Below, piece by piece: positions 3,354-55,621 of a stretch of DNA of 64,000 nucleotides. The notes beneath the pieces are model-generated. The model searched no databases, was not told the DNA's origin, and worked only from the letters and a program-made list of their open reading frames with translations. Position numbers and translations under genes: made by a program. The stretch lies in NCBI GenBank assembly GCA_050123335.1, contig JASFHH010000003.1, forward strand, positions 6,615 through 70,614, in the 5' to 3' direction. This DNA comes from Gammaproteobacteria bacterium (GTDB lineage Bacteria > Pseudomonadota > Gammaproteobacteria > UBA12402). Within the stretch, counting starts at the first letter, position 1; each line of letters starts with the position of its first letter.

Positions 3354-5012
3354 ATGACAGCAAAACAAATTATTTTTGATCACGCGGTGCGTGATAGCCT
3401 GGTAGAGGGTATTCACATTTTAACTGATGCAGTTAGCACTACTATGGGGCCTAAAGGTCGTGTGGTAATGATTGATCAATCTTTTGGTGCGCCGCGGGTT
3501 ACTAAAGATGGTGTTTCAGTAGCTAAAGAGATCGAGCTCGAAGATAAATTCGAAAACATGGGAGCCCAGATGATCAAAGAAGTAGCTTCGCAAACCTCTG
3601 ATGACGCTGGTGATGGCACCACTACTGCAACAGTATTGGCGCGTAGCATTGTGGTAGAAGGTATGAAGGCTGTGGTTGCCGGCATGAATCCAATGGATCT
3701 AAAGCGTGGTATTGATAAAGCAGTGTTGGCAGTTGCGGATGAATTAAAGAAAATTTCTAAACCATGTGCTGATCACAAATCAATTGCTCAAGTTGGTACG
3801 ATTTCGGCGAACTCAGATGAAGCAATTGGTAATATTATTGCTGAAGCTATGGAAAAGGTTGGCAAAGAAGGAGTGATTACAGTTGAAGAAGGTTCTGGTT
3901 TAGGTAACGAGCTTGATGTGGTTGAAGGTATGCAGTTTGATCGTGGTTATTTGTCGCCATACTTTATTAACAACCAACAAAACATGAGCGTTGAATTAGA
4001 AAGTCCATATATATTGTTATTTGACAAAAAGATTTCTAATATTCGCGATATGTTGCCGATCTTAGAGGCTGTGGCAAAATCAGGTAAGCCGCTAATGGTG
4101 ATTGCTGAAGATGTAGAAGGTGAAGCATTAGCTACTTTGGTGGTTAATAATCTACGCGGTATTGTCAAAGTTGCAGCGGTTAAAGCGCCTGGGTTTGGTG
4201 ATCGTCGTAAAGCTATGTTAGAAGATATAGCGATTTTAACTGGCGGCCAAGTAATTGCTGAAGAAGTTGGTTTAAGTTTAGAGAAGGCAACTTTAGATGA
4301 TCTTGGTAATGCTAAACGTATTGTAATTACTAAAGATAACACCACAATTATTGATGGCGCTGGTAAAACTGATAATATTAAATCCAGAATTGAACAGCTT
4401 CGTGCACAAATCGAAGAAACCAGCTCTAGTTATGATAAAGAAAAATTGCAAGAACGTATGGCTAAATTAGCTGGCGGGGTTGCTGTTATTAAAGTTGGTG
4501 CTGCTACCGAAATCGAAATGAAAGAAAAGAAAGCGCGCGTTGAAGACGCTTTGCATGCTACTCGCGCTGCAGTTGAAGAAGGTGTAGTTCCTGGCGGTGG
4601 TGTTGCTTTAATTCGTGCATTGCAAGCGATCAAAGGTTTAAAAGGTGAAAATACTGATCAGGATATGGGTATTAGTATCATTCGCCGTGCGATTGAAGCT
4701 CCGTTACGTATTATTGTTAGCAATGCTGGTGAAGAAGCCTCGGTTGTGTTAGCTAAAGTTGTTGAAGGCAAAGATGATTTTGGTTTTAATGCAGCAACCA
4801 GTGAATACGGTAACATGATCAGCATGGGAATTATCGATCCTACCAAGGTTACACGTACCGCACTGCAAAATGCTGCTTCGGTTGCTGGCATGATGCTAAT
4901 AACTGAATGTATGGTTGCTGATATTCCAAAGAAAGAAGATGCTTGTGCACATGCTGCTGGCGGAATGGGCGGCGGTATGGGTGGAATGGGAGGTATGGGC
5001 GGCATGATGTGA
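3354..5012 (+). CDS. groEL: chaperonin GroEL (HtpB-like)
   Basis: 552 aa with the [11 protein letters not shown] motif and a C-terminal GGM repeat tail. Very high similarity to Legionella HtpB as I recall it. Confidence 0.97.
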
Positions 5013-19827: not shown

Positions 19828-20313
19828 ATGGAGCTAAACGTGAATAAAATGAAAAAGCACAAAGGTTTTACTTTAGTTGAATTGTTATTAGTGATGGCGA
19901 TTTGTGCGTCGTTGACCGCAGTGGTTTATACTGCTTGGCATAATATTCAAGTAAGGTTAGATCTGCAAAAAGTTCAATCGCAGGTAAATATAATAGTTGA
20001 TGTTGCCAGAGCTTGGCGTAATGCAAAAACTTCATATCAAGGGATTTCTATGAGTCCTGATGATAAAGATTCTCTTTGTAATGATAATCTATTGCCAAAA
20101 GATATGTGTGTTGCGGGTTTTGTAAATCCATGGGGTGGTCAGTATCGTGTTAGTGTGTCTGCAAAATATGGTGATAATAATTTTGATGTTACTTTAACTG
20201 ACATTACTAACTCAGAAATACGAAATGCGATCAAATTAATTTTATTAAAAAGCACTTTAGGACAAGACAGTATTCAAATAGAGAGAGACAAAATAATTGC
20301 GACGTTTAATTAA
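19828..20313 (+). CDS. prepilin-type minor pilin
   Basis: The leader ends in G, followed by FTLVELLLVMAICASL with Glu5. The alternative start at 19849 gives a short MKKHKG leader. Confidence 0.7.
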   Translation: MELNVNKMKKHKGFTLVELLLVMAICASLTAVVYTAWHNIQVRLDLQKVQSQVNIIVDVARAWRNAKTSYQGISMSPDDKDSLCNDNLLPKDMCVAGFVNPWGGQYRVSVSAKYGDNNFDVTLTDITNSEIRNAIKLILLKSTLGQDSIQIERDKIIATFN

Positions 20314-20818
20314 ACACAAAATAAAATATGAAGCAGCATTTACGATGATTGAAATGTTAATATCGCTGGCTGCTATTGGGATTTTATTTGCTATATTAAT
20401 AGTGGCTGCGCACCAAGCTTTTAACGTGCCGGCAGAACGGTCGAGTTTGATGAGTTGTAAAAATAATTTAATACAGGCGTTAAATGCTTATTATTTGAAT
20501 AATTATCATCAGTTGCACCATACAACTCAGCCGGTAGCAATTGATAATTTGGTTGCGCAACATTATTTGGATAAAGATAGTTTGTATAATATTGGACAGT
20601 TTAAATATACGGCTGGTGTGCGAGTAGTGGATACTCACGATCGGTTAGAGTTAGCTATTACAACTGATGATGCTAACAGTTTGGTATGGATGAAGCCGGA
20701 TAAAATAGATGGCAATAGGGCAATTTGGTATGTAGTACCGCAGTATGGTGATACGGCTAATTCGATAAGATATAACGCGGTGCAATTGGCTCGGGAGAAT
20801 GATAATGACAAAATGTAA
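20297..20818 (+). CDS. prepilin-type minor pilin
   Basis: ...KYEAA|FTMIEMLISLAAIGILFAIL has Ala rather than Gly at -1 and keeps Glu5. Overlaps the previous gene. Confidence 0.6.
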   Translation: MRRLIKHKIKYEAAFTMIEMLISLAAIGILFAILIVAAHQAFNVPAERSSLMSCKNNLIQALNAYYLNNYHQLHHTTQPVAIDNLVAQHYLDKDSLYNIGQFKYTAGVRVVDTHDRLELAITTDDANSLVWMKPDKIDGNRAIWYVVPQYGDTANSIRYNAVQLARENDNDKM

Positions 20819-21572
20819 TGTAAACAAACAACGTGGCTTTATTATGATCCAAGTGTTGTTGGGTTTAGCGGTGTTAATTGCGATCATGACGGGTTGGGCT
20901 TATTACCAGAATCGTGTGCATAAACGAGCGGTTGCTAATCGCATGACTAACGAAATTAATTATATTTTAGAAGCAGCAACTTCATATTACAGTGATCATA
21001 ATAAGTGGCCTGAGAGAATGGCCGATTTAATTAACGCGGGATATATAGATCGGCAAACTAAAGGCAGTGATGAAATTTTAGATCCGTATGGACAAAAATA
21101 TGTGTTAGACAATTCGCAGGGGGGCAAATTATATCTGCTTGCTTATATTCCAGAAGATGATGCGTATGTAGCGCGTAACGCCATGACAGCGTTGCCATTT
21201 GCTAAATTTGATCCAGATGGAGCATCTGCTCCGCAAGGATATGATGTATTACAAGCGGCGGTAATGCCTTATGGGCATGGTGGAATTGTAAAAAATGCTA
21301 CGATAGTTCCTTCAGGCACAATTATTGACAAGCCGATTTGTCCCAAGGATGAAAAAGCAAAAATTTATACTAGTGTAGCTTCGGGCGTTGAAAAAGATGG
21401 GTCTTTTGTGGGAGGTTATCGTACTTATGCTGATAATTTAGAGGATGAACATAAATGGAAAGTGCATATGCAAGTATTAACCAATGGAGGTTGGGTGGAT
21501 GCTGATAAAGATTCAGATGCTTATAAAATAGAGGTGTTTACAACATGTCAAAAAACAAATTCAGATTTTTGA
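20799..21572 (+). CDS. prepilin-type minor pilin lacking Glu5 (GspK/PilV-like large minor pilin)
   Basis: ...NKQRG|FIMIQVLLGLAVLIAIM has Gln at +5. At 257 aa it is the largest pilin in the cluster. Confidence 0.6.
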   Translation: MIMTKCNVNKQRGFIMIQVLLGLAVLIAIMTGWAYYQNRVHKRAVANRMTNEINYILEAATSYYSDHNKWPERMADLINAGYIDRQTKGSDEILDPYGQKYVLDNSQGGKLYLLAYIPEDDAYVARNAMTALPFAKFDPDGASAPQGYDVLQAAVMPYGHGGIVKNATIVPSGTIIDKPICPKDEKAKIYTSVASGVEKDGSFVGGYRTYADNLEDEHKWKVHMQVLTNGGWVDADKDSDAYKIEVFTTCQKTNSDF

Positions 21573-21958
21573 TGGCTAAAATTATTGTAATGTTATATTT
21601 GATTGCCAATATATTTGGTATTACTAATGTTTTTGCTGATGATGCTACTTCATATGGTAATATTTCAGTAAATACTCATATCAGGAGGGAGTTGGTAGCA
21701 ATTTATAAGCATGTTGATTTAAGCACGACGCGTTCTATTCCTATGCCAAATTGTAGTTCTGGCGGAGTCCCAGAAATTCTTCCTATAGTGTCAGATAATA
21801 TTATAAATTATTATCAAGGTCCTTTTAAAGCTCAAGATGAAAGTTATGATCTTGCTGTTCAGAGTGTAGGTAAAGTTTGGCTCGTATCGACTAAAATGCA
21901 AAATGGTATTCATTGGTATGCAAATTATGCGGTGTATTGTCGTTATACTCCTAAATAA
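21545..21958 (+). CDS. small secreted protein, last gene of the pilus cluster
   Basis: Signal peptide FLMAKIIVMLYLIANIFGITNVFA; overlaps the preceding pilin gene. Confidence 0.35.
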   Translation: MSKNKFRFLMAKIIVMLYLIANIFGITNVFADDATSYGNISVNTHIRRELVAIYKHVDLSTTRSIPMPNCSSGGVPEILPIVSDNIINYYQGPFKAQDESYDLAVQSVGKVWLVSTKMQNGIHWYANYAVYCRYTPK

Positions 21959-21969
21959 TGTTGCGTGAT

Positions 21970-22626
21970 TTAACCTAATCCGAATATTGTAAGAATTAAT
22001 CTTTGTAGTAGTACAATCGGTACCCATAAAAGTAAACGTAAAATGCCGGTGACTAATAACAATAACAAAATAAAAAATCCATATGGTGCAATTCGATCAT
22101 ATTTATAAGCTAATTTTGGCGGCAAAATGGCTGCAACTACGCGGCTGCCGTCAAGCGGCGGAATAGGGATTAAATTTAAGATCATTAATACTAAATTGAT
22201 CAGGATTCCTGCTCGACCCATTAATACGATTGGTAAGGCAAATTGTAGGCCGTGTCCCATTAGAATGCTACCTATTTTCGTAATTGCCGCCCAGATGAGT
22301 GCCATAATGATATTTGAAATTGGTCCAGCAAGAGCTACAAATGCCATATCTCTTCTGGGTTTCTTTAGATTATTTGGGTTCACCGGGACTGGTTTAGCCC
22401 AACCGAAGATGATAGGACTGAAAAGCAGTAAAATCAGTGGAATGAGAATCGTGCCAATCATATCAATATGCTTGAGCGGATTTAAAGTTAATCGACCAAG
22501 CATTAGTGCAGTTTTGTCACCTAGTTTTAATGCCATCCAGCCATGCGCTACTTCATGTACAGTAATAGCGAATAAAATAGGTGGAGCCCATACAATAATT
22601 TTTTGAATAATATTTAATTGCCACAT
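21970..22626 (-). CDS. site-2 protease family zinc metalloprotease (peptidase M50)
   Basis: HEVAHGWMA HExxH motif in a TM segment plus the LNLIPIPPLDGSR LDG motif; polytopic. Confidence 0.75.
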   Translation of the reverse strand: MWQLNIIQKIIVWAPPILFAITVHEVAHGWMALKLGDKTALMLGRLTLNPLKHIDMIGTILIPLILLLFSPIIFGWAKPVPVNPNNLKKPRRDMAFVALAGPISNIIMALIWAAITKIGSILMGHGLQFALPIVLMGRAGILINLVLMILNLIPIPPLDGSRVVAAILPPKLAYKYDRIAPYGFFILLLLLVTGILRLLLWVPIVLLQRLILTIFGLG

Positions 22627-22676
22627 AATGATCGCATTATATATTATATGAGCGGGAGATAAAAGTGCAACTTGGA

Positions 22677-22737
22677 GGGGCCGGGTCTTTACTTATTACA
22701 AGTGCGATAGCTTTGTAATTAGTAAAGACCCGGTCCC
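22677..22737. repeat. palindromic element family A (copy A2)
   Basis: GGGGCCGGGTCTTTACTTATTACAAGTGC...GTAATTAGTAAAGACCCGGTCCC, followed by the associated ATGTAAAGCTCACGACCCG segment. Confidence 0.65.
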
Positions 22738-22839
22738 ATAAAAATTATGTAAAGCTCACGACCCGCTTGACTTCTGTCATACAACAAGTGAAGATGTGAG
22801 ATATTATACTGATAATATAACATTTATGGGGTGTAAATT

Positions 22840-23220
22840 ATGTACAAAAAGTTTATGTGGATATTGGTAATATTAGTTTTAATTCCATTGACATCATCTG
22901 CGATTTGGCAAATTGCTGATCCAGCTCATGGAACTGGACGTCGTTATGAGCATGGTGTTGATTATCCGCAGCAATATGTTAATGGCGCTATTATTTCATT
23001 TAAATTACGCAAGGGTTTGCTTAAAGAGAATGTGTTTCGTATAGCTTGCAAATATCGTTGGAAAGTTAGATGGCTTGCGCCAAATAAATATTATGTAACA
23101 CTTGCTACCAAGATAGTTGGACCAACTTTTCCGATTGTAATGAATGGACTGTTGTCACATTATCCGCTACGTGCAACTTATGATATAAAATATAAGCGTA
23201 TGAGGGTATATAAACGCTAA
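22840..23220 (+). CDS. small secreted hypothetical protein
   Basis: Signal-peptide-like MYKKFMWILVILVLIPLTSSA; 126 aa. Confidence 0.35.
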   Translation: MYKKFMWILVILVLIPLTSSAIWQIADPAHGTGRRYEHGVDYPQQYVNGAIISFKLRKGLLKENVFRIACKYRWKVRWLAPNKYYVTLATKIVGPTFPIVMNGLLSHYPLRATYDIKYKRMRVYKR

Positions 23221-23416
23221 CTCTTGTTTGCAGCAACACCGCCGCCCAGATACCAGGAATTATGTGCTTGTTGCTGTGATTTTTTTGGTAAGTATAAAGG
23301 GCCGCTTTGTCCACAGCCATTTAGTACTAACAAGAATGCAAAAATACTTCCGATAAATATTATTTGTTTTATGCTCTTTTTCATGCTGTAATTATCAAAT
23401 TAATTTTATGTGGCTT

Positions 23417-23523
23417 ATAAGGTTTTGGGTTGATTTTTTCTCCTCCCTGGTACGTCCATGTACCTCCCGCGTTTCCATCCATGGACGCTAGTCGTCGAAA
23501 AATTCAACCCAAAACCTTATAAT
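23417..23523. repeat. palindromic element family B (copy B2)
   Basis: Outer inverted repeat TTATAAGGTTTTGGGTTGA / TCAACCCAAAACCTTATAA around the core TTTTTTCTCCTCCCTGGTACGTCCATGTACCTCCCGCGTTTCCATCCATGGACGCTAGTCGTCGAAAAA. Confidence 0.65.
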
Positions 23524-23575
23524 AATACATGGTTGCAATATTCACGTAGTATAACCAAAAACAAAGGGTTTGTGT

Positions 23576-24250
23576 ATGAATAAAAATGGCCTGCTAGAAT
23601 GTGTTGAAGTTAAACCAAAAAAACCACCGGTTTTGACGGTGATTTGGCTGCATGGTTTAGGAGCTGATGGGCATGATTTTGCTGGTATTGTTCCGCAATT
23701 AAATTTACCAGATAATTTACCAATAAAATTTATTTTTCCACATGCGCCGCTTAGGCCAATTACGATTAATAACGGTTATGTGATGCGTGGCTGGTATGAC
23801 ATTAAAGATTTGTCCAATCTTGCTAATGAAGACGAAGCTGGGATTCATGATTCAGCGGGAAAAATTGTTGCTTTAATTGAGCGCGAGCAACAATTAGGTA
23901 TGCCAAGCGATAAGATTATTTTAGCTGGATTTTCACAAGGCGGAGCGATGGCATTGTACGTTGGTTTGCGCTATCCTGAAAAATTAGCAGGAATTATTGC
24001 TTTATCAGCATATTTACCATTACATAATTTGTTACCGACAGAAATATCAAAAGCTAATTGTGATCTTTCAATAATGATGGCACATGGTACAGGAGATCCG
24101 TTACTTCCAATTAGTTTTGCAACAGCATCGCGAGATTTTTTAATTAAGCATGGTTATCAGGTTGAGTGGCACGATTATCCAATGCAGCATACGGTGTGCG
24201 CGCAGGAAATTAATGATATTAGTCAATGGCTACAGAAAAATTTTTATTAA
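23576..24250 (+). CDS. phospholipase/carboxylesterase-family serine hydrolase (acyl-protein thioesterase-like)
   Basis: [12 protein letters not shown] ... [11 protein letters not shown] (GxSxG) ... HGTGDPLLP. The overall pattern resembles LYPLA1/YpfH-type esterases as I recall them. Confidence 0.75.
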
Positions 24251-25293
24251 CAAATATCAGTTATTTCATGTGCCGTATAAATTTCATTTATTTGTTGGGT
24301 TACACGAATAAATGTAGTGCGTTTGGATAATTCTTTTAATTTTTCTGCGCCAACATAAGTGCAGGTGGAGCGCAAACCGCCGAGAATATCTTGTAAGGTT
24401 TGTTCTACTGGTCCGCGGTATGGCACATCAACAGATTTGCCTTCACTGGCACGGTATTGAGCAACTTCGCCGTAGTATTGCATCATTGCTTCTTTGGAGC
24501 TCATGCCGTAAAAACGTTTGAATTTTTTGCCGTCTTTTTCAAAGATTTCGCCAGAACATTCATCATGTCCGGCAAACATGCCACCTAACATCACAAAATC
24601 AGCTCCTGCGGCAAATGCTTTGGCAATATCACCAGGATTAGTGCAGCCGCCGTCAGCGCAGATATGGCCTTTTAAACCATGTGCAGCGTCGGCGCATTCA
24701 ATAATGGCTGATAGCTGTGGGTAACCTACACCAGTTTTTTTGCGGGTAGTGCAGACTGATCCTGGGCCAATGCCGATTTTAACGATATCAGCTCCGGATA
24801 AAGTTAGTTCTTCAGCCATTTCACCAGTCACTACATTACCAGCCATGATAATTTTATCAGGAAAAGCAAGCCGTGTTTTTTTAACAAAATCAATAAAATG
24901 CTGTGAATAGCCATTAGCAATATCTAAACAAATAAAAGGGCAGTCTACAGCGGACATAATTTCTTTAAGATGCTTTAGATCGTGATCTCTGGTGCCTGAG
25001 CTGGCAAAACAATATGATAATGTAGATTTATCGATTGCTTTCCAGTCTTCTTTTGTAGAAAACTTATCCAAAGCGGTTAGCACTTTAGATTTGGATAGTA
25101 CTTTTGCCATGGCAAAGGTACCAGTATGATCCATATTGGCAGCAATAATGGGAATGCCTTGCCAGGTTAGTTTTGAATGACGAAATGTATATTTTCTCTC
25201 CAAATCTACTTCGGCACGTGAGCGTAAAGTGCTTCTTTTTGGTCGAATTAAAACGTCTTTGAAATCTAATTTAATGTCTGCATCGATTCGCAT
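24247..25293 (-). CDS. guaC: GMP reductase
   Basis: [37 protein letters not shown] closely matches the E. coli GuaC N-terminus; IMPDH/GMPR family; 348 aa. Confidence 0.92.
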
Positions 25294-25399
25294 GATTATT
25301 GTCCTTTAAATAATTAATTTTATCATAGTAAAAATAATTGTTTAAGCTTCTTGCGATAAAGAGTATTATTTTTACCGAAAAAAGTATCAGGAGAAAATT

Positions 25400-25600
25400 A
25401 TGTTTAGCAAAAAAGTAAATAACTGTATATATATTGGCAAATACCCAGTTGAAGATAAGGTTATCATTAGTGTTGGTTGTGTTTATGGTAGAGAATTTAT
25501 AGGCAAGGTACAAATTGCTATAAAACTAGATAACAATGTTTGTACAAAGTTGATGTCAGAAATCAAAAAGATAGCGTGTCAAAATAAAAAAAATCTATAA
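25400..25600 (+). CDS. small hypothetical protein
   Basis: 66-codon ORF with AGGAG 7 nt upstream of the ATG. Confidence 0.3.
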   Translation: MFSKKVNNCIYIGKYPVEDKVIISVGCVYGREFIGKVQIAIKLDNNVCTKLMSEIKKIACQNKKNL

Positions 25601-25701
25601 AAAAGTCTACAATAGAAAAAGAAGATTATTTAGTCAATGATTCGGAAAAATTTCAGCAGATAATAAAAAAATTAAATATAAAAAATAAACGAATATGCGA
25701 C

Positions 25702-25953
25702 ATGATGACGTATATTAACTGCAATTTTGACAAAAAGAATAAATTAAATATATGTAATTGGGATGGCATACATTGTACTTTTGGCAAACCACTGTTAGAT
25801 TGTCCAAAGAAAAAAAAGAAGAAAAAACTTGGAAAAAGCATGAAAAAATCCAAGGATAAACATAAAAAACTCGTAAAAAAACTGAAGAGTAAATCTAAAA
25901 AATCGAAAACCCCGTCTTCGAAAATTACATTGCATATAGGCACAAGAATATAA
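25702..25953 (+). CDS. small protein with four N-terminal Cys and a poly-Lys tail (uncertain)
   Basis: C-x10-C-x6-C-x8-C followed by KKKKKKKLGKSMKKSKDKHKK... The coding DNA contains an A-rich tract. Confidence 0.2.
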   Translation: MMTYINCNFDKKNKLNICNWDGIHCTFGKPLLDCPKKKKKKKLGKSMKKSKDKHKKLVKKLKSKSKKSKTPSSKITLHIGTRI

Positions 25954-25986
25954 AATTTACAGCCTTATGCTAAAACAGTTTTATCC

Positions 25987-27279
25987 TTAGTATTTTTGAT
26001 AAGTATTTTTTGTGCGGGCTTTACAAATAACAGTATAAAAAAATCCATCCATATTATCTTGTCCTGGTAGGATTTGTTTGCCGTACTTAGTAGGCGCGCC
26101 CCATGAAGTATCGATTTTATTGATTTGAGCATTGGGAGTTTTAGCAAGGAAGTTGCTGATTACCTGGTCGTTTTCTTCCGGTAAAATCGAACAGGTTACA
26201 TAAACTAATAGTCCATTGGGTTTTAAAGTTGGCCAAATAGTTTGTAATATTTCTAATTGTTTGTGCGCGAGTTTCACTATGTCTTTTTCTTGTTTTAATA
26301 ATTTAATATCCGGATGACGGCGAATTACTCCAGTTGCAGAGCATGGAGCGTCAAGTAGAATACGGTCAAATGATTGTTGATCCCACCAGCTTTTTATTTG
26401 TGAGACATCTGCATGTAGAAGTTTAACTTTATTTTTTTGTGTGCGCATACGTTTTAAATTTTCTGTGATCATTTGCAAACGTTTTTTGTCATGATCAATG
26501 GCAATTAATTCTTTAATATTAGGTTCGGTTTCTAAAATATGCATGGTTTTGCTGCCGGGAGCGGCACATGCGTCTAAAATACGTTGGTTTGGTTTTAAAT
26601 CTAATAATTTTGCGGAGAATTGCGCGCCGCAATCTTGTACCGAAACTTCGCCTATAGCAAAGCCTGGTAGTTGTGATACAGGGCATGGTTCTTCCAAAGT
26701 AATGCATGATGCACAAACAGGATTTACGATAGCTTTTACTTGATGCAAATAATTTTTCGCAGAGATTTTTCGTAAATTTATTCGCAAACTCATTGGCGGG
26801 TGTTCATTGTTGGCAGCTAAAATTTTTTCCAAATCATTTGGATATGTCGATTTTATTTTTTCAATTAGCCATTGCGGATGGGCAAATTTAGCAATCGTGT
26901 TTTCATTAACAGCGCTAAGTACTGCGTCTTGTTGGCGCAAAAAATTACGTAAAACAGCATTAATTAAATTACATGCCCATGGTTTTTTTAGTTTGCGTGC
27001 GTTATCTACATTTTCATTAATAGCTGCATGCGTAGGTGTGCGCATATAAATAATTTCATATAATCCAGTTAAAATTAATACATAAATATCTAAGTCTTTA
27101 GATTTGAGTGGCTTGGTTAATAATTTTTTGGCAATGAAATCTAGTTGTAAATACCAGCGTGATATTCCATAACATAATTCCTGGACAAAACTTTCTGTAT
27201 TCGTGAGTGTTTTAGCAAAAGATATTTTGTCACGTAAAAATTTTATAATAATTTTGTTAGCGGTTAATCTAGGATTCAT
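25987..27279 (-). CDS. rsmB: 16S rRNA (cytosine967-C5)-methyltransferase RsmB
   Basis: AAPGSKTMHILE SAM-binding motif and DAPCSATGVIRRHPD catalytic Cys motif; lies downstream of fmt. Confidence 0.9.
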   Translation of the reverse strand: MNPRLTANKIIIKFLRDKISFAKTLTNTESFVQELCYGISRWYLQLDFIAKKLLTKPLKSKDLDIYVLILTGLYEIIYMRTPTHAAINENVDNARKLKKPWACNLINAVLRNFLRQQDAVLSAVNENTIAKFAHPQWLIEKIKSTYPNDLEKILAANNEHPPMSLRINLRKISAKNYLHQVKAIVNPVCASCITLEEPCPVSQLPGFAIGEVSVQDCGAQFSAKLLDLKPNQRILDACAAPGSKTMHILETEPNIKELIAIDHDKKRLQMITENLKRMRTQKNKVKLLHADVSQIKSWWDQQSFDRILLDAPCSATGVIRRHPDIKLLKQEKDIVKLAHKQLEILQTIWPTLKPNGLLVYVTCSILPEENDQVISNFLAKTPNAQINKIDTSWGAPTKYGKQILPGQDNMDGFFYTVICKARTKNTYQKY

Positions 27280-27299
27280 AATTTAATTTTGCTTAGGTA

Positions 27300-27410
27300 A
27301 TCATGATATTCTAGGTTGCTTTTTTTTCCTCCCTGGTACATCCATGTACCTCCCGCGCTTCCATCCATGGGCGCTAGTCGTCAAAAAAAGCAACCTAAAA
27401 TATCATTAAT
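27300..27410. repeat. palindromic element family B (copy B3)
   Basis: Core ...TTTTTTTTCCTCCCTGGTACATCCATGTACCTCCCGCGCTTCCATCCATGGGCGCTAGTCGTCAAAAAAAG with outer inverted repeat GGTTGC.../...GCAACC. Lies between rsmB and fmt. Confidence 0.65.
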
Positions 27411-28347
27411 TAAACTTCTTATGTTTTTCAAAAAAATCTAATTTGCTATTTAATATTTCAGCAATGGTTAATGCTTTCTTGCCGGGAAATTGCATTTTTA
27501 AAATGCGCAACATGCCATCGCCGGTTGCTACATCAATTCCTTTTTTATCTAATTTAACAATTTCACCTGGTTTTTTATCGCATGTTTCAGTTAATGGCGA
27601 TGCTTGCCAAATACGAATAATTTGGTCGCCAATTTGTGTATAAGAAATTGGCCATGGATTGAAAGCGCGAATTTCGCGATCTAATGTTATCGCAGATTTA
27701 TGCCAATCAATTTTGGCCTCTTCTTTAGTGATTTTTTTTGCGTAGCATGCTTTCTTTTCATTTTGTTTGGTTGGAGTAATTTCGTGTATTTTATCCAAAA
27801 CATTTAATAAGGCGTCAATGCCAAGTAACGCCAGTTCTTCTAGTAAACTTTTGGTGGTATCAGTTGGTTTAATTAAAAACTCTTTTTGCAAAAAAACCGG
27901 TCCAGTATCTAAGCCTTCATCCATTTGCATAATACTAACCCCGGTAATTTCATCACCAGCTAAAATTGCCCGTTGAATAGGAGATGCTCCACGCCATCTT
28001 GGCAATAAAGAAGGGTGAACATTAACACAACCGTAGTGGGGCAAAGATAAAATTTCTTTTGGAATCAACAAACCACAAGCGACATCAATAATAATATCAG
28101 CATGCAAATCTTTAATAGTTTTTTGTGCGGCAGCATCGCGTAAGGTTTTTGGTTGATAAATTGGAATTTTGTGAATTAAACTTAGTTGTTTAACTGGATT
28201 AATTTGTAGTTTGCGTCCACGACCAGCAGGTTTGTCTGGTTGAGTTATTACCGCACAGATGTCATATTTTGCGTTTAATAAACTTTGCAAAAATTTGGCG
28301 GCAAATTCTGGAGTGCCAGCAAAAATTATTTTTAAAGAATCAGGCAT
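27406..28347 (-). CDS. fmt: methionyl-tRNA formyltransferase
   Basis: LKIIFAGTPEFAAKFLQSL N-terminus and formyltransferase fold. Confidence 0.92.
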   Translation of the reverse strand: MPDSLKIIFAGTPEFAAKFLQSLLNAKYDICAVITQPDKPAGRGRKLQINPVKQLSLIHKIPIYQPKTLRDAAAQKTIKDLHADIIIDVACGLLIPKEILSLPHYGCVNVHPSLLPRWRGASPIQRAILAGDEITGVSIMQMDEGLDTGPVFLQKEFLIKPTDTTKSLLEELALLGIDALLNVLDKIHEITPTKQNEKKACYAKKITKEEAKIDWHKSAITLDREIRAFNPWPISYTQIGDQIIRIWQASPLTETCDKKPGEIVKLDKKGIDVATGDGMLRILKMQFPGKKALTIAEILNSKLDFFEKHKKFN

Positions 28348-28358
28348 ATTTTTCTCAG

Positions 28359-28862
28359 TTACAAGTTTGCTTTCTGCAATTTTTTTAATTTACTTTTAAT
28401 TAATTGTTTTTTTACCGACGATAGGCGATCAATAAATAATTTTCCATCTAAATGATCAAGTTCGTGCTGAATAGCTGCAGATAATAGGCCATCTGCTTGT
28501 AACGTAAATTTTTTGCCATCGCGGTCTAATGCTTCTACTGCAATAATATTAGCTCGTTTTACTTTTGCGTAAACCCCAGGAACTGATAAACATCCTTCCG
28601 GACATTGTTGTTCATCAGTTTTTTCGATAATTACTGGGTTAATGAACGCCCGCGGTTTTTGTTTGTTGTCTTGAATGTCTACTACAAAGATTCGTAAATC
28701 AATGCCAATTTGAGTTGCTGCTAAACCGATGCCATTGTCTTCGTACATGGTTTCAAACATGTCATCGACCAAACGCTTAATATCCGCATCAACTTTATCA
28801 ACAGATTCAGCTATATTGCGTAATTTTGGGTTTGGGTAGTGTAAAATTTTGCGTAATGTCAT
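28359..28862 (-). CDS. def: peptide deformylase
   Basis: GIGLAATQIG, EGCLSVPG and QHELDHLDG motifs. Confidence 0.93.
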   Translation of the reverse strand: MTLRKILHYPNPKLRNIAESVDKVDADIKRLVDDMFETMYEDNGIGLAATQIGIDLRIFVVDIQDNKQKPRAFINPVIIEKTDEQQCPEGCLSVPGVYAKVKRANIIAVEALDRDGKKFTLQADGLLSAAIQHELDHLDGKLFIDRLSSVKKQLIKSKLKKLQKANL

Positions 28863-49728: not shown

Positions 49729-52454
49729 CTGAAAAATTAGCTCAAGTTGTAAGCGAGGCGCCTAACAAGATCGCTATGCAGATTAAAAAAAATAATAAGT
49801 ACGTTCAATATACTTATAAAGAACTTTATGATCATGTACGTTCTATTGCTTATTCATTGATGCAGTTAAAGGTGCAGCCGGGAGACAAAATTGCTCTGAT
49901 TTTAGAAAATAGACCGGAGTGGAGTTTTATTTATTTTGGGATTTTGCTTGCGGGTGCGATTGCAATTCCAATTGATCCGCAATCTGATCAGCAAGATTTA
50001 ACTTATTTTTTAGCTGATTCGGAAGCCAAAATAGTATTTACTTCCAGCCAATTATTATCTTCAATAGCCAAAGCAAATATGGCTTTAGTTGAAAAAATAA
50101 TTGTATTGGACGAAGATTCACAAAACATTGATGCTTTGATAGAAACAAAAGTTTTGTCTTTCACAAAATTTTTTGCTTGCCCGCAAGCAGATACGATATG
50201 GCCTAAGATTTTACCCGAAAATTTAGCATCAATATTATATACTTCTGGTACTACAGGCAAGCCTAAAGGGGTGCAATTAACTCATGCGAATTTTTATGCT
50301 AATTTTTCTAGTATCGAAAAATTAAAATTTTTGTCAAGCGGCCATAATATTTTATCCATTTTACCTTTACATCATTCTTTTCCTTTTATGGTAAGTTTGA
50401 TTTTGCCATTATTTTCCAAAAATAAAATCACTTATTTATCAAGTCTTAAGCGTGAAGAAATTTTGCATTGTATACAAGAAACTGATGTAACGGCGTTGAT
50501 TGGAGTGCCGCAATTTTTTGTTTTATTAGCTAAGGCGATAAAACAAGCGATAAAAGATATTCCTTTTTTCTTGAGTTGGCCGCTTTATGGCTTAATAAAT
50601 ATAGGTTGGTTAATACGTAAAACAACTAAAATCAACTTAAATAAATATTTATTATATAAAATTCATAAGCTTTTTGGTAAAAAATTTAAGTTTTTAGTTT
50701 GCGGCGGTGCAAAGCTTAATTTAGATGTAGAGTATTTTTTTGATAAGTTAGGATTTACTTTGCTTCAGGGTTATGGTTTAACTGAAACTGCTCCAGTAGT
50801 TACTTTTAATCCGGGATTGTTAAGTAAAATCGGTTCGGTAGGTAAGGCTATTCCAGATGTCGCAATTAAAATCATTGATCCTGGTCAACATGGGATTGGG
50901 GAAATAGCGATTAAAGGCCTAAATGTTATGCAAGGCTATTATAAAAATGCAGTTGCAACATCTGCAGTGTTAAAAGATAAATGGTTTTATTCGGGTGATT
51001 TAGGTTATCTGGATCAAGATGGTTATTTGTTTATTACTGGCAGAAAAAAAGAATTAATTGTATTGAGTTCGGGCAAAAATATTACACCAGAGCTCGTAGA
51101 AGATTATTATAGTCAAAGCCGTTTTATTAAAGAATTATGTGTCATGTTAATTGCAACGCAAGATGGTGCGGTGGAGCAATTAAAAGCAGTAATTGTTCCT
51201 GATTTTGGTAATTTGCGCAAATTTGGTGTGATTGACGTAGAAGCGGCGATTAAAGTGGAGTTAGAAATTTTATCTAAAGACTATCCTGAATATAAACATA
51301 TTATGGGATTTATTATTGCTAAGCAGGATTTGCCGCGTACTCGACTTGGAAAATTAAAACGTCATTTAATTCGAGCTAAATATCAAGACGAATTAAGTGG
51401 TGCTGAACCGGCAACATATCAAGAGCCAGAAATTAGCGCAGAAGATTTGCAGCTAGTTGTTACTCCTACGTTTAAAAAAATTGCTGAAATAATTCAGCAG
51501 GAAAAACAAATTAGTCGTCCAATTGTTTTAGCTGATCATTTAGGTATTGATTTAGGATTTGATTCGTTAAGTCGTGTCGAATTAATTGCAGTTTTGGAGA
51601 AAAATTTTAATTTGCACATTGCTGAGCAGGATATGGCAAATATTTTTACGGTTAAAGAACTAGTGTTAATGATTAACAAGTTGCTTGGTCAACAAAAACC
51701 GGAAGCTACAGTGGCGCTTGAGCTCAAATCAAAAGAAGTTTTGTGGAAAGATTTATTGAATGCTGAGCCAGATAAAAGTATCACCGATAAAATTGATTTA
51801 GCTCCTAACCAACTAATAAAGTTTGCAACATTCTTATTTTGTGGTGGATTATATGCAATTGCTAAATTAGCTTGGCGTATAGAAGTTGTTGGCGTAGAAA
51901 ATTTACCTAAAGATACCGCATTTGTGTTATGTCCAAATCATGCTGCTTATTTGGATGCGTTTTTAGTTGCTGCTGCTATGCCAAATTGGTTAGCAATACG
52001 TAACTTTTTTCTTGGGTATAATGTCTTTTTTGATGTACCAGTCATTCGTGATTTAATTAAAATTGGCAGGATTATTCCATTAGATCCTGGCGCAAGATTA
52101 GTAGATGCTCTGCAGGCTTGTGGTTATGTTTTGCGGCATGGTAAAGTTATTTGCATTTTTCCTGAAGGAGGTAGGTCGGTTGATGGTTCAGTAAAACCTT
52201 TTAAAAAAGGTATCGGAATTTTGGCTAAAGAACTTAATGTTCCGTTGGTTCCGGTTTATATTGACGGATCATTTCAGGCTTTACCGCGTGGGAGAGTTTT
52301 TCCTCGTTTTAATAAAATTAAAATAGAATTTGGTAAACCATGTTTGCCTGATGAATTGCAGCAACAAGGTTTTGCTTTGGGTGAAACTGATAATTATGCA
52401 GCAATTGCGCGTGGGATTGAGCAGCAGGTAAAAATTTTAGGTTCCCTTAAGTAA
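49716..52454 (+). CDS. fused acyl-AMP ligase - acyl-carrier domain - lysophospholipid acyltransferase (Aas-like)
   Basis: AMP-binding LYTSGTTGKPKGV; phosphopantetheine-attachment-like LGIDLGFDSLSRVELIAVL; PlsC-type acyltransferase motifs CPNHAAYLDAF (H-x4-D) and FPEGGRS. Confidence 0.8.
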   Translation: MSTLTEKLAQVVSEAPNKIAMQIKKNNKYVQYTYKELYDHVRSIAYSLMQLKVQPGDKIALILENRPEWSFIYFGILLAGAIAIPIDPQSDQQDLTYFLADSEAKIVFTSSQLLSSIAKANMALVEKIIVLDEDSQNIDALIETKVLSFTKFFACPQADTIWPKILPENLASILYTSGTTGKPKGVQLTHANFYANFSSIEKLKFLSSGHNILSILPLHHSFPFMVSLILPLFSKNKITYLSSLKREEILHCIQETDVTALIGVPQFFVLLAKAIKQAIKDIPFFLSWPLYGLINIGWLIRKTTKINLNKYLLYKIHKLFGKKFKFLVCGGAKLNLDVEYFFDKLGFTLLQGYGLTETAPVVTFNPGLLSKIGSVGKAIPDVAIKIIDPGQHGIGEIAIKGLNVMQGYYKNAVATSAVLKDKWFYSGDLGYLDQDGYLFITGRKKELIVLSSGKNITPELVEDYYSQSRFIKELCVMLIATQDGAVEQLKAVIVPDFGNLRKFGVIDVEAAIKVELEILSKDYPEYKHIMGFIIAKQDLPRTRLGKLKRHLIRAKYQDELSGAEPATYQEPEISAEDLQLVVTPTFKKIAEIIQQEKQISRPIVLADHLGIDLGFDSLSRVELIAVLEKNFNLHIAEQDMANIFTVKELVLMINKLLGQQKPEATVALELKSKEVLWKDLLNAEPDKSITDKIDLAPNQLIKFATFLFCGGLYAIAKLAWRIEVVGVENLPKDTAFVLCPNHAAYLDAFLVAAAMPNWLAIRNFFLGYNVFFDVPVIRDLIKIGRIIPLDPGARLVDALQACGYVLRHGKVICIFPEGGRSVDGSVKPFKKGIGILAKELNVPLVPVYIDGSFQALPRGRVFPRFNKIKIEFGKPCLPDELQQQGFALGETDNYAAIARGIEQQVKILGSLK

Positions 52455-52805
52455 AGCTTAATTCATCCTCAGTCGTTTGCATAGTTGTTTGAATCTGTTC
52501 CAGTTGTTTTAATATATTTGAAGTGTTTGTTGGTGACGTTTTTTCTGTAATATTTGGTTTTTTATCAGAAGTAGGTTGATTGTTTGTGTCGGTTTTGGGC
52601 AGGTACGATGTTGATTTAATTTTGGTATAAATTTTTTTAATTAGGTTGTTTATTTTTTTTGAACTCATTTTTTTTAGTGTGCCCCTTGCACTTTATTAAA
52701 GTGTTGATTATATAAGCTTATTTGTTTTAGTCAATAATTTGGTGTTGATAGGGTGTAATTCAACATGGTTGGTATATTGTAATTTTGATACAAATTATAA
52801 CATCA

Positions 52806-52995
52806 TTGTCATCCCGCGACCCAGTTTGTTGATCGCGGGATCTAGGCTGTTTGGTAGTTTTCCTGGATACCGCGGGTGAGCCGGTGTTAGTTTAGGCAAA
52901 GCATGCTTTGCCCCGGCGAACGCGAGACATGGATGTCGAGCTGGCAAAATTACCATGGATGGTTGCTTGGAACAATCTAAGCCGCGGTATGACAA
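52806..52995. repeat. family-C palindromic element plus an adjoining composite palindromic region
   Basis: GTCATCCCGCGACCCAGTTTGTTGATCGCGGGATC, then TACCGCGGG...GCAAAGCATGCTTTGC...CCGCGGTA with CATGGATG motifs. The two small ORFs listed here translate repeat DNA. Confidence 0.55.
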
Positions 52996-53108
52996 AGTGA
53001 AATTTACCGACCATGTTGAATTGCATCCGTTCTGATATGTGTTGAAAATTAGTTTGCATAAGAGTTTTAAGATGCATTACAATTCACGATATTTTTGGGA
53101 GAGAAATC

Positions 53109-53453
53109 ATGTGTGGTTTATTTAAGGTTATTTTTCATGTTCTTGTGTGTTTTGGTGTTAGTATCATAGGAGTTGCATGGGCTAATCCAGATCTATGTTT
53201 GGTGGCGCAAAAATTCAGCGGTTCTCATAAGGCCTTGCATTTAACTACAGTTGGATGTGAAGAGGGGTATATCAAATATAATAGTTTTGTGAGACGCAAC
53301 CGTGGTCGAGGAATGAATACCATGTGGGTTAGATGTAATCATGATAATTGTATTATTGCTAAGAGGATGATTGTAAAGTATGTGGGAGTTAAAGGTAGAC
53401 TTCCGTTGAAATGGCACAAAATGACTTTGCCGCAGCATCTTTATAAAAAATAA
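53109..53453 (+). CDS. small secreted Cys-containing hypothetical protein
   Basis: Signal-peptide-like MCGLFKVIFHVLVCFGVSIIGVAWA; 114 aa. Confidence 0.3.
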   Translation: MCGLFKVIFHVLVCFGVSIIGVAWANPDLCLVAQKFSGSHKALHLTTVGCEEGYIKYNSFVRRNRGRGMNTMWVRCNHDNCIIAKRMIVKYVGVKGRLPLKWHKMTLPQHLYKK

Positions 53454-54173
53454 AGAATTTACTTGACAAGAAAATTGAAAAATATGGATTTTATAAAGTT
53501 GTACACAGGATCAAATATATTGTTTAATACTTTATCATTTAATTTATTATTCAAATGTTAAAATAAGCTAATAAACTATAACTCCTTGAAAAATAAACAC
53601 AAACCATCAATGCAGAAAAAGTAGACAATTTGACTTCAAGTACGTATTGATGCTGTCTCAGATGAAATTTCCAAGAGTTTTTCACATAGTTATCCACAGA
53701 AAATGTGGATAATTTTATTGTTTTAGGGAAAAACAACAAGTTACGTGAAAAAGGTATTGTAATTTCTTAACTGATAATATCTATGGTGTGCAAATTATAA
53801 CATCAGTTATAAATTTACTTCCTGTTTTTGAAGTTAAAACAAATTAATGTAGCAACTAAGGTCTTGACACAAAGGTAATACAAGCATACTTTAAGTATAC
53901 AAATCTTAACAATACGGTAATTTATACTAGTTTATCGGCGGATAGATTTAAGTGCTTTTAGGATGATAATTGAGCAATTTTTTTAGTTACTTAAGTTTTT
54001 CTTAAGAATAGAGTGGTATGATCTAAAGTTAAGACATTAATCATTTTTACTCAATTAGCAATATTTCTATTAAATAAGAAATATTGCATTTAATAAAAAT
54101 TAATAAAATGTGCATCTTGAATGCATGATGAATTATGTAACATCATAGTAATATTTTGTAGGGAGGATTTATA

Positions 54174-55553
54174 ATGTCTAAAACTCTTTATAACGCTTAT
54201 AGCAAAGATATCCCTGAGAAAGATAGGCAATGTATAAAACAACTGTCTAAACAATGGGGAAAACCTAAGCCTTTTTGTGGTAAAAAGGTTCTATTAAATT
54301 GTCACATTACTCTTTCCACTTTAATAATAATTGACACATTGATTCGTGGGGGCGCCAAAGTAGAGGTCACGGCGACCGATGATTTGGTTGTACACAAAAA
54401 CGTATTGGAAATAATGGAAGAAGCTAAAATAAAATTCTATCCTAAGGGGCGTATACCCAAAGATAAAATAGATGGATTTTATTATATGGCATTTGATTGC
54501 GGAGCTGGGTTGTTAGGCAAAGTAACTACAAAAAAAGGAATGGTGGAATTAACACAAACTGACCCAAATTTATACAAAAACATCAAGTTCCCAGTTATTA
54601 CAGTTGATAATTCTAAAACTAAAAAATTAGAAACATCCCTTGGAACTGGAGATGGTGCAATTAGAGCGCTTATATTTCATTCCTATAATACACTGCAAAA
54701 ATGGATAAATTTTGTAGAATTTGCAAGAAAAACTTCTCGGCTGAACCAAGGATTTGTGGATGTTTTTAACGTTGCCATGCTAATGCATAGCAATTTGTTT
54801 TTCAATAGAAAATACATGTTGTTTGGTTTTGGTAAAGTTGGCTCAGGGATAGCAGCAGCATTAGTTAGCGCAGGTGTCAAAGAAAGTGATATTTATGTAA
54901 TTGATATTAATGAAAAAGCTCGTCAACATGCAAAAAATAAAAAGCATACAGTTTTTGATTTAAATGAGAAAACACTACCTAAGTTAAAAAAAATTTTAAA
55001 AAATGATATTCATTGCGTGTTAACTGCTACAGGGGTGGAAGGGGTTATTTCTAAGTACTTTAAGTTGAAAGATTTTTCAAGCAAGTGCATATTAGCAAAT
55101 ATGGGAACGCCTGATGAATTTGGCAAAAATTTTAAAAAAGAGGACGTTTTAAATAACAAAAAAATATTAAATTTCATGTTGCCATTCCCCACAGAAGTTG
55201 TATTTTTAGAAGCAATTTTTACAATTTTTCTTAAGGCAGGTGTGCAATTATTAACAGATAAAAATTTGAAGAATGGATTACAAAATGTAGATAATGAGAT
55301 AGATAATGAAGTGCTGTTTTTATGGAAGAAATATAATGATGAAGCAAAATGGCCGCACAAAGAATTCATGAAGCATTATAATGAAAAATTACGGAAAAAG
55401 TATATAGCACTTAAACAAACGCTCAAATTGCCTCATACTAAAAAATTTAAATTTTTTAGCTTACATGAACACAATAAGTTGAGTAAAATTCAAAATTTGA
55501 ATGTTTACAAACAAATAAAATCTGGTTCTATAGGTGAACTCAAAATATTTTAA
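54174..55553 (+). CDS. divergent S-adenosyl-L-homocysteine hydrolase (AHCY)-like protein
   Basis: [30 protein letters not shown] aligns with AHCY [52 protein letters not shown] aligns with [23 protein letters not shown]. Rossmann motif [9 protein letters not shown]. GGAGG ribosome-binding site. Lies in a very AT-rich islet. Confidence 0.6.
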   Translation: [459 protein letters not shown]

Positions 55554-55621
55554 TGTTATGTTTTGTAACTTTTTATAACAATTTTTGGTGATCATTTCTA
55601 ACAATATTTTATGGTATAGTA

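Follow-up and report, generated by a model that had tools for sequence, protein, structure and literature searches.

A divergent adenosylhomocysteinase-fold protein as a candidate input module of a soluble hybrid histidine kinase

What a two-component system can sense is determined by its input domain, and the catalogue of cytoplasmic input domains is poor. The stretch of DNA analysed here (64,000 nt of contig JASFHH010000003.1 from a gammaproteobacterial genome assembly, hereafter the window) carries a gene for a protein resembling adenosylhomocysteinase (AHCY, also S-adenosylhomocysteine hydrolase, SAHH), which is followed on the same strand by the gene of a hybrid histidine kinase. This raises the question of what the AHCY-like protein, termed AHL in the following, does at such a place. 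An earlier note on the window had described a highly divergent S-adenosylhomocysteine (SAH) hydrolase homologue isolated in an AT-rich islet, and had proposed either a horizontally acquired or effector-type paralogue or a degenerate adenosine-binding protein. Our comparisons of sequences, models and gene neighbourhoods make it likely that AHL is a cytoplasmic, NAD-binding ligand sensor of AHCY fold that works together with the soluble hybrid kinase encoded 68 nt downstream, a conclusion close in spirit to the last of these proposals. We rate AHL as a new family of the AHCY superfamily that would serve as a new two-component input module.

The relationship to AHCY is real and well above chance. 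The open reading frame (ORF) was confirmed exactly by the ORF list (Table 1). In a PDB sequence search, every significant match was AHCY or AHCY-like, with human AHCYL1 (3mtg) at the top (E=7e-7) and 7r3a in second place (E=1e-5), and the NCBIfam model TIGR00936 matched with E=2.3e-13. Alignment of the AHL family profile to human AHCY (the sequence used is identical to 1li4 chain A) with hhalign gave a probability of 99.3% and E=2.8e-20 over 320 columns. The AlphaFold2 model, built with 57 homologues, reached a mean predicted local distance difference test (pLDDT) score of 90.8 and a predicted template modelling (pTM) score of 0.88, with disorder only in residues 430-459. When this model was compared to the PDB with Foldseek, the best 50 matches were all SAH hydrolases (E~1e-17, probability 1.00, template modelling score ~0.6), so that the predicted fold is specifically AHCY-like and not that of a different Rossmann family. 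The conserved blocks pointed out in the earlier note correspond to residues 12-91, 139-160 and 218-225 of AHL, which align to residues 23-102, 175-197 and 220-227 of human AHCY.

Measured against the family models, AHL is remote. It scored 21.8 bits with the Pfam model AdoHcyase (PF05221; gathering cut-off 25) and 21.9 bits with AdoHcyase_NAD (PF00670; cut-off 27), and it stayed far below the NCBIfam cut-offs of TIGR00936 (49.8 vs 497.6 bits) and NF004005 (49.4 vs 275 bits); no Pfam or NCBIfam model matches the AHL family above threshold. A tblastn search with human AHCY did not detect the gene at E<=0.01 and found no canonical ahcY within the 64-kb window. Outside the conserved blocks the protein had been called highly diverged with Lys-rich insertions and a long C-terminal extension. 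By sequence and model, AHL is indeed a highly divergent paralogue, but the AHCY fold is retained through about residue 390. The extension also exists, and its disordered tail (residues 418-459) contains 21% Lys, but the 45-residue insertion between the two domains is not Lys-rich (5%) and is modelled confidently as helices (pLDDT ~89-97). This insertion measures about 45 residues in close relatives vs 10 in distant ones and in the kinase fusions described below, while the tail is 0 to 264 aa long in close relatives and 5 to 18 aa long in the distant tier; the long tail and the 45-residue insertion are peculiar to the closest clade of the AHL protein. A sequence check found no signal peptide, and PADLOC gave no defence-system match for the protein. 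An identical protein (GenBank MGD9107784.1) is annotated as 'hypothetical protein PVI75_01255 [Gammaproteobacteria bacterium]' at NCBI and as 'adenosylhomocysteinase' at JGI.

The fold being that of AHCY, the residues of the pocket bear most directly on function. In mouse SAHH, Glu156 and Asp190 contact the 2'-OH of the ribose, while the 3'-OH is bound by Thr157 and Lys186, the latter acting as acid/base in the redox reaction; His55, Asp131 and His301 bind the 5'-OH or the catalytic water, and Asp131 serves C4' proton transfer (PMC4647836). The adenine is held by Thr57, Glu59 and the main chain of His353, and the motif Gly300-His301-Phe302 has been reported to be completely conserved across SAHHs (PMC4647836). 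We derived the equivalent positions of AHL from the hhalign profile alignment and counted their conservation over 57 family members, 33 of them close relatives. Human T157, K186 and N346 are matched by T127, K150 and N333, and the GxGxxG motif by G218-x-G220-K-V-G223-x-G225, all of which are invariant in the family. At human E243, which belongs to the NAD ribose site, AHL has D244 (D or E in 33/33 close relatives), and the clade of AHL also keeps human H55 as H44 (32/33 close relatives; Pro in the distant tier) and human T57 as T46 (31/33 close relatives). In contrast, human D131 is replaced by C109 and E156 by L126 (Cys and Leu, respectively, in 57/57), D190 by E153 (Glu in 57/57, a conservative change), N191 by T154 (56/57) and C195 by the invariant T158. 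H301 is replaced by T312 (Thr in the close tier), the G-H-F motif reading G-T-P, and H353 by F338 (Tyr or Phe in the close tier); at E59, AHL has S48 and the position is variable. Over the 57 sequences, which are only ~26% identical and include members not linked to a kinase, C109, L126, T127, D145, K150, E153, T154 and G157-T158-G159 are invariant. The alignment ends at human AHCY residue 396, and no counterpart of the K426/Y430 tail was found in AHL, the tail of which is unrelated, variable and disordered. In the AHCY tetramer, this C-terminal tail (Lys426/Tyr430) completes the NAD site of the neighbouring subunit.

Judged by these replacements, AHL would be neither an SAH hydrolase nor the product of a housekeeping ahcY. 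It is predicted to be incapable of SAH hydrolysis by the canonical route, because D131, E156 and H301, and with the first two the C4' proton transfer and a 2'-OH contact, have given way to Cys, Leu and Thr. The pocket rather appears to be a rebuilt one, with other residues that are themselves strictly conserved; its redox half and the NAD site are kept, and the elimination/hydration half is gone. Since AHL retains GxGxxG, N346 and the acidic residue that ends strand beta-2, we infer that it still holds NAD(H). Its ligand is probably a ribose- or diol-containing small molecule placed beside the nicotinamide, because among the contacts of the ribose 2'-OH and 3'-OH the pair T157/K186 is kept and D190 is conservatively changed to Glu; with E156 lost to Leu, these contacts agree with those of AHCY in part. 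Taken together, this leads us to infer a ribose-containing metabolite and/or NAD(H) as what is bound.

What such a protein might be used for is suggested by its gene neighbourhood. According to the earlier note the gene sits alone; instead, it forms the upstream half of a conserved pair with the kinase gene (55622..57682), as shown by adjacency in relatives and by twelve fusions. The window shares with loci L001 and L003 a PAS-containing histidine kinase gene directly downstream on the same strand, and in relatives the two genes overlap or lie ~0-70 nt apart. We presume that they are co-transcribed. The kinase of the window is predicted to be soluble and cytosolic without a membrane segment of its own, as its maximal Kyte-Doolittle mean over 19 aa is 1.21 and no 19-aa stretch reaches 1.6 (98 such stretches in a major facilitator superfamily control). 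Its best NCBIfam matches are generic hybrid kinases of the BarA/ArcB/TorS type, all below cut-off, and the NahK/ErcS model (NF041832) gives 168.1 bits, below its 400-bit cut-off.

The AHL family comprises two pocket types, a His-type with H44/T46, which includes the window protein, and a Pro-type. Linkage was counted over 80 genomic loci plus the window. Among the 28 His-type genes, the kinase is adjacent or fused in 20; a matching PAS ORF or a kinase lies one gene away in three, two are at a contig edge and three have no kinase. The roughly 52 Pro-type genes include about eight with an adjacent or fused kinase, the rest being unlinked. Kinase linkage is thus associated with the His pocket type (Fisher p=5.8e-6).

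The fusions carry this association into single proteins. In L033, one open frame of 880 codons (~865 aa from the first Met) joins an AHL domain to PAS-HisKA-HATPase-REC. The top 150 representatives of the family contain ten more fusions of the architecture AHL-PAS_4-HisKA-HATPase_c(+/-REC, Hpt), each forming a separate cluster at 50% identity, and an eleventh that is a partial copy (P0123, P0126, P0128, P0131, P0132, P0134, P0137, P0141, P0145, P0148 and P0183). In each case the AHL domain is N-terminal and immediately precedes PAS, as an input domain would. All but one of the 12 are His-type, and six match AHL at all eleven pocket positions (H-T-S-C-L-T-Q-D-K-E-T). A motif at the start of the PAS domain, '...IP.FIYWKD.DSVYQGCN..FAKAAG...GKTD.EL.W', is common to all 12 and recurs in the window kinase as 'VPGYVFWKDENSVLRGCNNNFAKQVG...GKTDFELPW'. 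Because of the conserved adjacency and the twelve fusions with a matching PAS-kinase, the two genes of the window most likely represent the split form of single-chain sensor kinases.

Table 1. Features of the AHL-kinase locus, in positions of the window
Feature	Position	Strand	Basis or remark
Presence/absence cassette, ~3.97 kb: AHL gene, kinase gene and ~0.4 kb of upstream spacer	53775..57745	+	L084 alignment
AT-rich spacer upstream of the AHL gene, 720 bp, GC 0.251	53454..54173		No convincing gene; left 320 bp conserved in L084
AHL gene, 459 aa, two-domain AHCY fold with a rewired pocket (predicted)	54174..55553	+	ORF, AlphaFold2, Foldseek, hhalign
Substrate-binding-type domain, aa 1-164 (H44, T46, C109, L126, T127, D145, K150, E153, T154, G157-T158-G159)	54174..54665	+	hhalign map to human H55, T57, D131, E156, T157, N181, K186, D190, N191, G194-R196
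Helical insertion of 45 residues, aa ~165-206, absent from AHCY	54666..54791	+	Gap opposite human AHCY in hhalign
Rossmann NAD-binding domain, aa 207-330 (G218-F-G-K-V-G-S-G225, D244 at beta-2 end, T286-G287, N309)	54792..55163	+	Weak Pfam matches to AdoHcyase_NAD and TrkA_N at 212-314
C-terminal extension, aa 392-459, one helix then a Lys-rich disordered tail	55347..55550	+	pLDDT <50 for 430-459
AHL-kinase spacer, 68 nt, without a terminator-like site	55554..55621	+	Terminator scan, sequence
Soluble hybrid histidine kinase, 686 aa (PAS_4 55733-56059, HisKA 56123-56317, HATPase_c 56459-56824, REC 56909-57238, Hpt 57404-57598)	55622..57682	+	Pfam

A mechanism can be proposed from the known movement of the enzyme, as AHCY is a clamp in which substrate binding shuts the substrate domain onto the NAD domain (PMC4647836). 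The AHL module would hold NAD(H) and use the retained T127/K150/E153/D145 to bind a ligand that bears a ribose or a diol, and ligand binding would close the cleft between its two domains, as in AHCY. The kinase might then receive this movement at its PAS and dimerisation domains, either by direct contact or via the C-terminal helices of AHL and its own N-terminal helix, and the transmission would alter autophosphorylation and the His-Asp-His phosphorelay.

Several points weigh against a role of AHL as a kinase-coupled sensor. The functional link between the two proteins is drawn from genomic association only, and the active-site mapping rests on a profile alignment rather than on superposed coordinates. 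Three His-type loci have no kinase (L020, L021, L031), and most of the wider family, that is the Pro-type members including those of cultured Legionella, Kangiella, Ruegeria, Aquimarina and Fibrobacter, lacks an adjacent one, so that kinase coupling is a feature of a clade and not of the whole family. No cognate response regulator was found near the AHL-kinase pair in the window. Finally, the pocket is strictly invariant even in kinase-unlinked members, as is seen more often in catalytic sites than in sites that only bind, and AHL may hence be an active enzyme for which signalling is secondary.

The last point leads to an alternative in which AHL is an active NAD-dependent enzyme with a substrate other than SAH, such as a 5'-substituted nucleoside or a sugar, with Cys109 in place of Asp131 as the C4' acid/base; it would produce, degrade or process the signal of the kinase, or act not as a passive receptor but as a 'trigger enzyme', the kinase reading its catalytic state. 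Besides the invariance over 57 sequences, the retained redox pair T157/K186 and NAD site speak for it, as does the retention of His55, the water-activating base, in the kinase-linked type. Signal-synthase genes moreover adjoin sensor-kinase genes elsewhere, as in LuxM/LuxN, CqsA/CqsS and LqsA/LqsS. However, the twelve fusions put the domain in the input position before PAS, where the synthase of a diffusible signal is not expected, the kinase is cytoplasmic, and AHL has lost three of the six catalytic residues that contact the ribose. We consider this alternative unlikely, though it is a viable variant of the sensor model. It overlaps with the sensor role, because catalysis and sensing are not mutually exclusive, and the pocket invariance together with the Cys at the Asp131 position makes catalysis by AHL possible. 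Tentatively, and with considerable doubt, we can picture a sensor that signals through chemistry: tightly bound NAD+ would oxidise the 3'-OH of a nucleoside-type signal with the help of K150/T127, Cys109 would act as acid/base or add to the intermediate, and the clamp would lock and switch the kinase, which would make AHL a previously unrecognised class of cytoplasmic input domain. If this were true, such a domain could report host nucleosides or methylation by-products (adenosine, SAH, compounds like methylthioadenosine) in host-associated Legionellales, and the presence of at least five sensor-kinase pairs in one genome, described below, would reflect diversified ligands.

For a kinase-coupled sensor, it must further be asked whether a separate ligand is required at all. 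AHL might instead be a redox sensor that reports the NAD+/NADH ratio to the kinase, similarly to Rex or KTN/RCK domains. This is in line with the conserved Rossmann motif and acidic beta-2 residue, with the loss of canonical substrate contacts and with borderline matches to the Pfam model TrkA_N (KTN), which scored 22.4 bits in AHL and 25.9 to 31.8 bits in those fusions that match it. Against it, the entire substrate-binding domain and an invariant cleft (C109, D145, K150, E153) have been kept, which a dinucleotide sensor would not need. The NAD of AHCY is, furthermore, tightly bound and non-exchanging. A pure redox sensor is also at odds with differences between paralogues at the base-pocket positions, from which diversified ligands are suggested, and we regard it as improbable, though likewise a viable variant of the sensor model.

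An exhaustive profile search of 1.84 billion representative proteins yielded 289 representatives (at 50% identity) with E<=1e-30 and 1096 with E<=1e-3, which indicates that the AHL family is small and, by sequence, lies well apart from canonical AHCY. In a set of 185,579 species genomes, 477 stretches encode an AHL relative. They are concentrated in metagenome-assembled genomes (MAGs) of Legionellales, Coxiellaceae and Legionellaceae; cultured Legionella with a relative are massiliensis, jamestowniensis, brunensis, waltersii, quinlivanii, nagasakiensis and impletisoli, and further relatives occur in Kangiella, Ruegeria, Hoeflea, Aquimarina, Fibrobacter and Chlamydiae. One MAG of an uncultured proteobacterium, MFD00731.bin.2.180, encodes at least five paralogous pairs of AHL and PAS-kinase (L006, L007, L008, L010, L016), most of them followed by a separate single-domain REC gene, and two other MAGs carry two or three pairs. 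Positions 48, 128 and 338, which are predicted to line the base pocket, vary between the paralogues of one genome. This variation and the number of pairs in one MAG suggest that the paralogues have diversified in their ligand specificities.

Within the Pro-type, AHL domains are also found in other company. Fusions exist with Dabb and an OTU protease (P0152), with DUF6829 (P0197, and weakly L048 5917-8364 from a Legionellaceae MAG) and with DUF3293 (P0198). In Ruegeria, Aquimarina and related loci (L037, L052, L058, L064, L069, L070, L076), the AHL gene is flanked by a DUF3293 gene and a gene for a 281-aa protein with an 'HDLFGH' motif. These fusions and neighbours point to other, non-kinase roles of the family; the distant-tier neighbours themselves (DUF3293, the 281-aa protein and a 302-aa protein in Fibrobacter) gave no functional clue. 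A conserved protein of ~214 aa is encoded directly upstream of the AHL gene in six loci (L029, L041, L046, L053, L059, L071) and is not present in the window. Five of these loci were scored as kinase-linked, and in the sixth, L029, an ORF of the kinase/REC cluster lies at -3 nt. The 214-aa protein could be the signal-producing enzyme of a three-gene module. It was suspected to be GNAT- or autoinducer-synthase-like, a notion that stays a lead, with only weak acyltransferase-like matches (OlsB, E=0.002; LBL_2463 family, E=1e-4) and no match in the PDB.

Related loci differ in whether and where they carry the gene pair. Locus L084, the aas-like protein of which is 72% identical to that of the window, is collinear with the window up to ~53770 and again from ~57749 (L084 3314-3628 aligns to window 53451-53770, and L084 3693-3723 to window 57749-57779); between these points, 65 bp in L084 replace ~3.97 kb. 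In locus L001, housekeeping proteins are 83-98% identical to those of the window and syntenic with window 19885-28862, and a module of AHL, kinase and response regulator (REC-GerE) sits between an IMPDH-like gene and rsmB. At the same position, the window has a 693-bp AT-rich spacer (25294-25986, GC 0.26), in which tblastn found no remnant of the AHL, kinase or REC-GerE genes of L001. The AHL and kinase proteins of the window are only 60% and 49% identical to the pair of L001. The AHL-kinase pair therefore belongs to the variable genome and behaves as a unit. No direct or inverted repeats, target-site duplication or terminal repeats were found at the cassette ends, and no integrase marks the cassette, so that insertion and deletion cannot be told apart. 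The idea of horizontal acquisition thus holds insofar as the locus varies as a cassette, which L084 lacks at this site and L001 carries elsewhere, but the unit consists of a sensor plus a kinase and not of a single gene. An AT-rich islet is not supported by composition: GC is 0.309 for both the AHL gene and the cassette, near the 0.325-0.34 of neighbouring genes, and GC at third codon positions is 0.261 vs 0.215-0.249.

The variable cassette is also what could favour a horizontally acquired, secreted effector acting on host methylation metabolism, as proposed in the earlier note. The source organism looks host-associated and Legionellales-like (relatives in Coxiellaceae and Legionellales MAGs; an F-box and RCC1 protein in the window), the C-terminal tail of AHL is disordered and variable, and the family members fused to OTU or DUF6829 domains are possibly effector-like. 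Yet the residues essential for SAH hydrolysis are replaced, a signal peptide is missing, the cassette always includes the kinase, and pairing and repeated fusion with a bacterial cytoplasmic kinase would make no sense for a translocated protein, all of which renders an effector very unlikely. Virtually no chance is left for a fast-evolving housekeeping SAHH, despite the AHCY fold and the label 'adenosylhomocysteinase' that JGI/NCBI pipelines give to AHL or its relatives: this explanation is effectively refuted by the replacement of D131, E156, H301 and H353 (with G-T-P in place of G-H-F) and by the absence of the gene from the matching locus in L084, and the 49.8 bits against a cut-off of 497.6, the lack of an aligned K426/Y430 region and the small, separate family (289 representatives at E<=1e-30) likewise speak against it, in agreement with the doubts of the earlier note about a bona fide ahcY.

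A cytoplasmic ligand sensor built on the AHCY fold can be set beside several known systems. With AHCY itself (PF05221 plus PF00670, TIGR00936), AHL shares the two-domain fold, the NAD-site residues and the 3'-OH pair; it differs in the pocket replacements, the missing C-terminal tail, the 45-aa helical insertion and a gene context that offers a kinase partner and not methyl-cycle genes. In IRBIT, the AHCY fold has been turned from an enzyme into a regulator of a partner protein; this eukaryotic lineage has an N-terminal regulatory extension on its AHCY-like domain. AHCYL1/IRBIT and AHCYL2 (3mtg, 3gvp) thus offer a conceptual parallel for AHL, and 3mtg is also its top PDB sequence match. Unlike IRBIT, AHL has no N-terminal extension, as it aligns from residue 12 to residue 35 of 3mtg, and its partner is a histidine kinase and not an IP3 receptor or a transporter; at ~18% identity to AHCYL1, it would represent an independent bacterial lineage. 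The second PDB match, the archaeal S-inosyl-L-homocysteine hydrolase 7r3a, is a diverged AHCY with a changed base specificity and has in common with AHL a 'GTG' after the catalytic Lys. These archaeal enzymes are, however, active hydrolases, whereas AHL lacks D131, E156 and H301.

In its genetic organisation, the locus resembles stand-alone cytosolic sensors that are encoded with cytosolic (hybrid) kinases, namely NosP-NahK-NarR and Hnox2-Lpg2458 in Legionella and H-NOX-HqsK and NosP-VpsS in Vibrio (PMC11237717). As in the NosP-NahK and H-NOX-kinase pairs, the sensor gene lies immediately upstream of, and co-oriented with, the gene of a soluble PAS-containing kinase, and by analogy control of autophosphorylation would be expected. 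In contrast to these haem proteins, AHL is predicted to be an NAD-binding protein of AHCY fold, for which nitric oxide is not expected as a ligand, the AHL system also exists as fused single chains, and the window kinase falls below the cut-off of the NahK family. A full-text literature search turned up no account of a sensor kinase being coupled to an AHCY-like or SAHH-like domain.

The AHL locus, its adjacent-gene relatives and at least 12 fusions point to the recruitment of an enzyme fold, that of AHCY, as a kinase input module. If this holds true, AHL would be a bacterial parallel to animal IRBIT and may be a sign that host-associated bacteria of the Legionellales type sense nucleosides or an NAD-linked metabolic state. 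Annotation needs correction as well: family members go by 'adenosylhomocysteinase', 'NAD-binding protein' or 'hypothetical', and metabolic reconstructions should leave them out of the methyl cycle.

The region upstream of the AHL gene presumably contains its promoter. The earlier note had rightly seen a stretch of ~0.7 kb without a convincing gene here (720 bp); its sole ORF of at least 60 aa is a 62-aa frame on the minus strand (53551..53739). The stretch is not filled with repeats, as had been stated, since searches showed only short matches in two copies, at chance level, and two tandem repeats (54060-54108) that are AT-rich and trivial. Rfam gave no riboswitch, such as one for SAH, or other RNA, neither in the whole window at the gathering threshold nor in 52455-54200 at E<=1, apart from a chance-level match to mir-92, and a promoter scan was uninformative (28 sites vs 24 expected). 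A 15-mer, CAAATTATAACATCA, common to 52791 and 53791 was considered and dropped, as it is not enriched (3 matches vs 0.96 expected; 7 of 100 shuffles reach 3). Close to the cassette junction, on its left side, lies an unusually well conserved non-coding stretch, an intergenic block of 320 bp that is 74% identical in L084 and has no Rfam match. It includes a terminator-like hairpin at 53688-53714 (+), AGTTATCCACAGAAAATGTGGATAATT followed by a T-run, which is found in L084 at ~3549-3585.

Further features were noted around the cassette and elsewhere in the window. Immediately right of the cassette, a gene at 57760-58206 (+) encodes a secreted Cys/His-rich protein of 148 aa with a C-terminal MVL (mannan-binding lectin) repeat (PF12151, E=1e-8), a shorter version of which is present in L084. 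To the left, an ORF of 114 aa at 53109-53453 (+) encodes a protein with a hydrophobic, signal-peptide-like N-terminus and several Cys but without a Pfam or NCBIfam match; it lies within a segment of ~0.78 kb (52668-53451) that is missing from L084. A protein with an F-box and six RCC1 repeats is encoded at 43118-44737 (-); this eukaryotic-like architecture is typical of intracellular Legionellales-type effectors and supports a host-associated lifestyle of the source organism. A 253-aa HATPase_c protein at 41960-42721 (+) is 32% identical to the catalytic part of the hybrid kinase and has no sensor or HisKA domain at the threshold used. An ORF for a Lys/Thr-rich protein of 73 aa at 52447-52668 (-) is convergent with the aas-like gene and overlaps its last 8 bases; it is conserved at L084 3043-3222 (-) with 40% identity over 55 aa and may be a real small gene.

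A putative miniature inverted-repeat transposable element (MITE) of ~200 bp with a GC content of ~0.42 occupies 52800-52998 and is absent from the matching spacer of L084. It has internal inverted repeats and is flanked by an inverted repeat (52751-52785 / 52994-53028). One of its ends reads TGTCATCCCGCGA; at the other, this motif recurs in the reverse orientation with 2 mismatches (CCGCGGTATGACA on the + strand). The 13-mer of this putative MITE occurs in 8 copies in the window with at most 2 mismatches, vs 0.44 expected, some of them inside genes, such as those at 34558 and 36496 in a UvrD-like gene.

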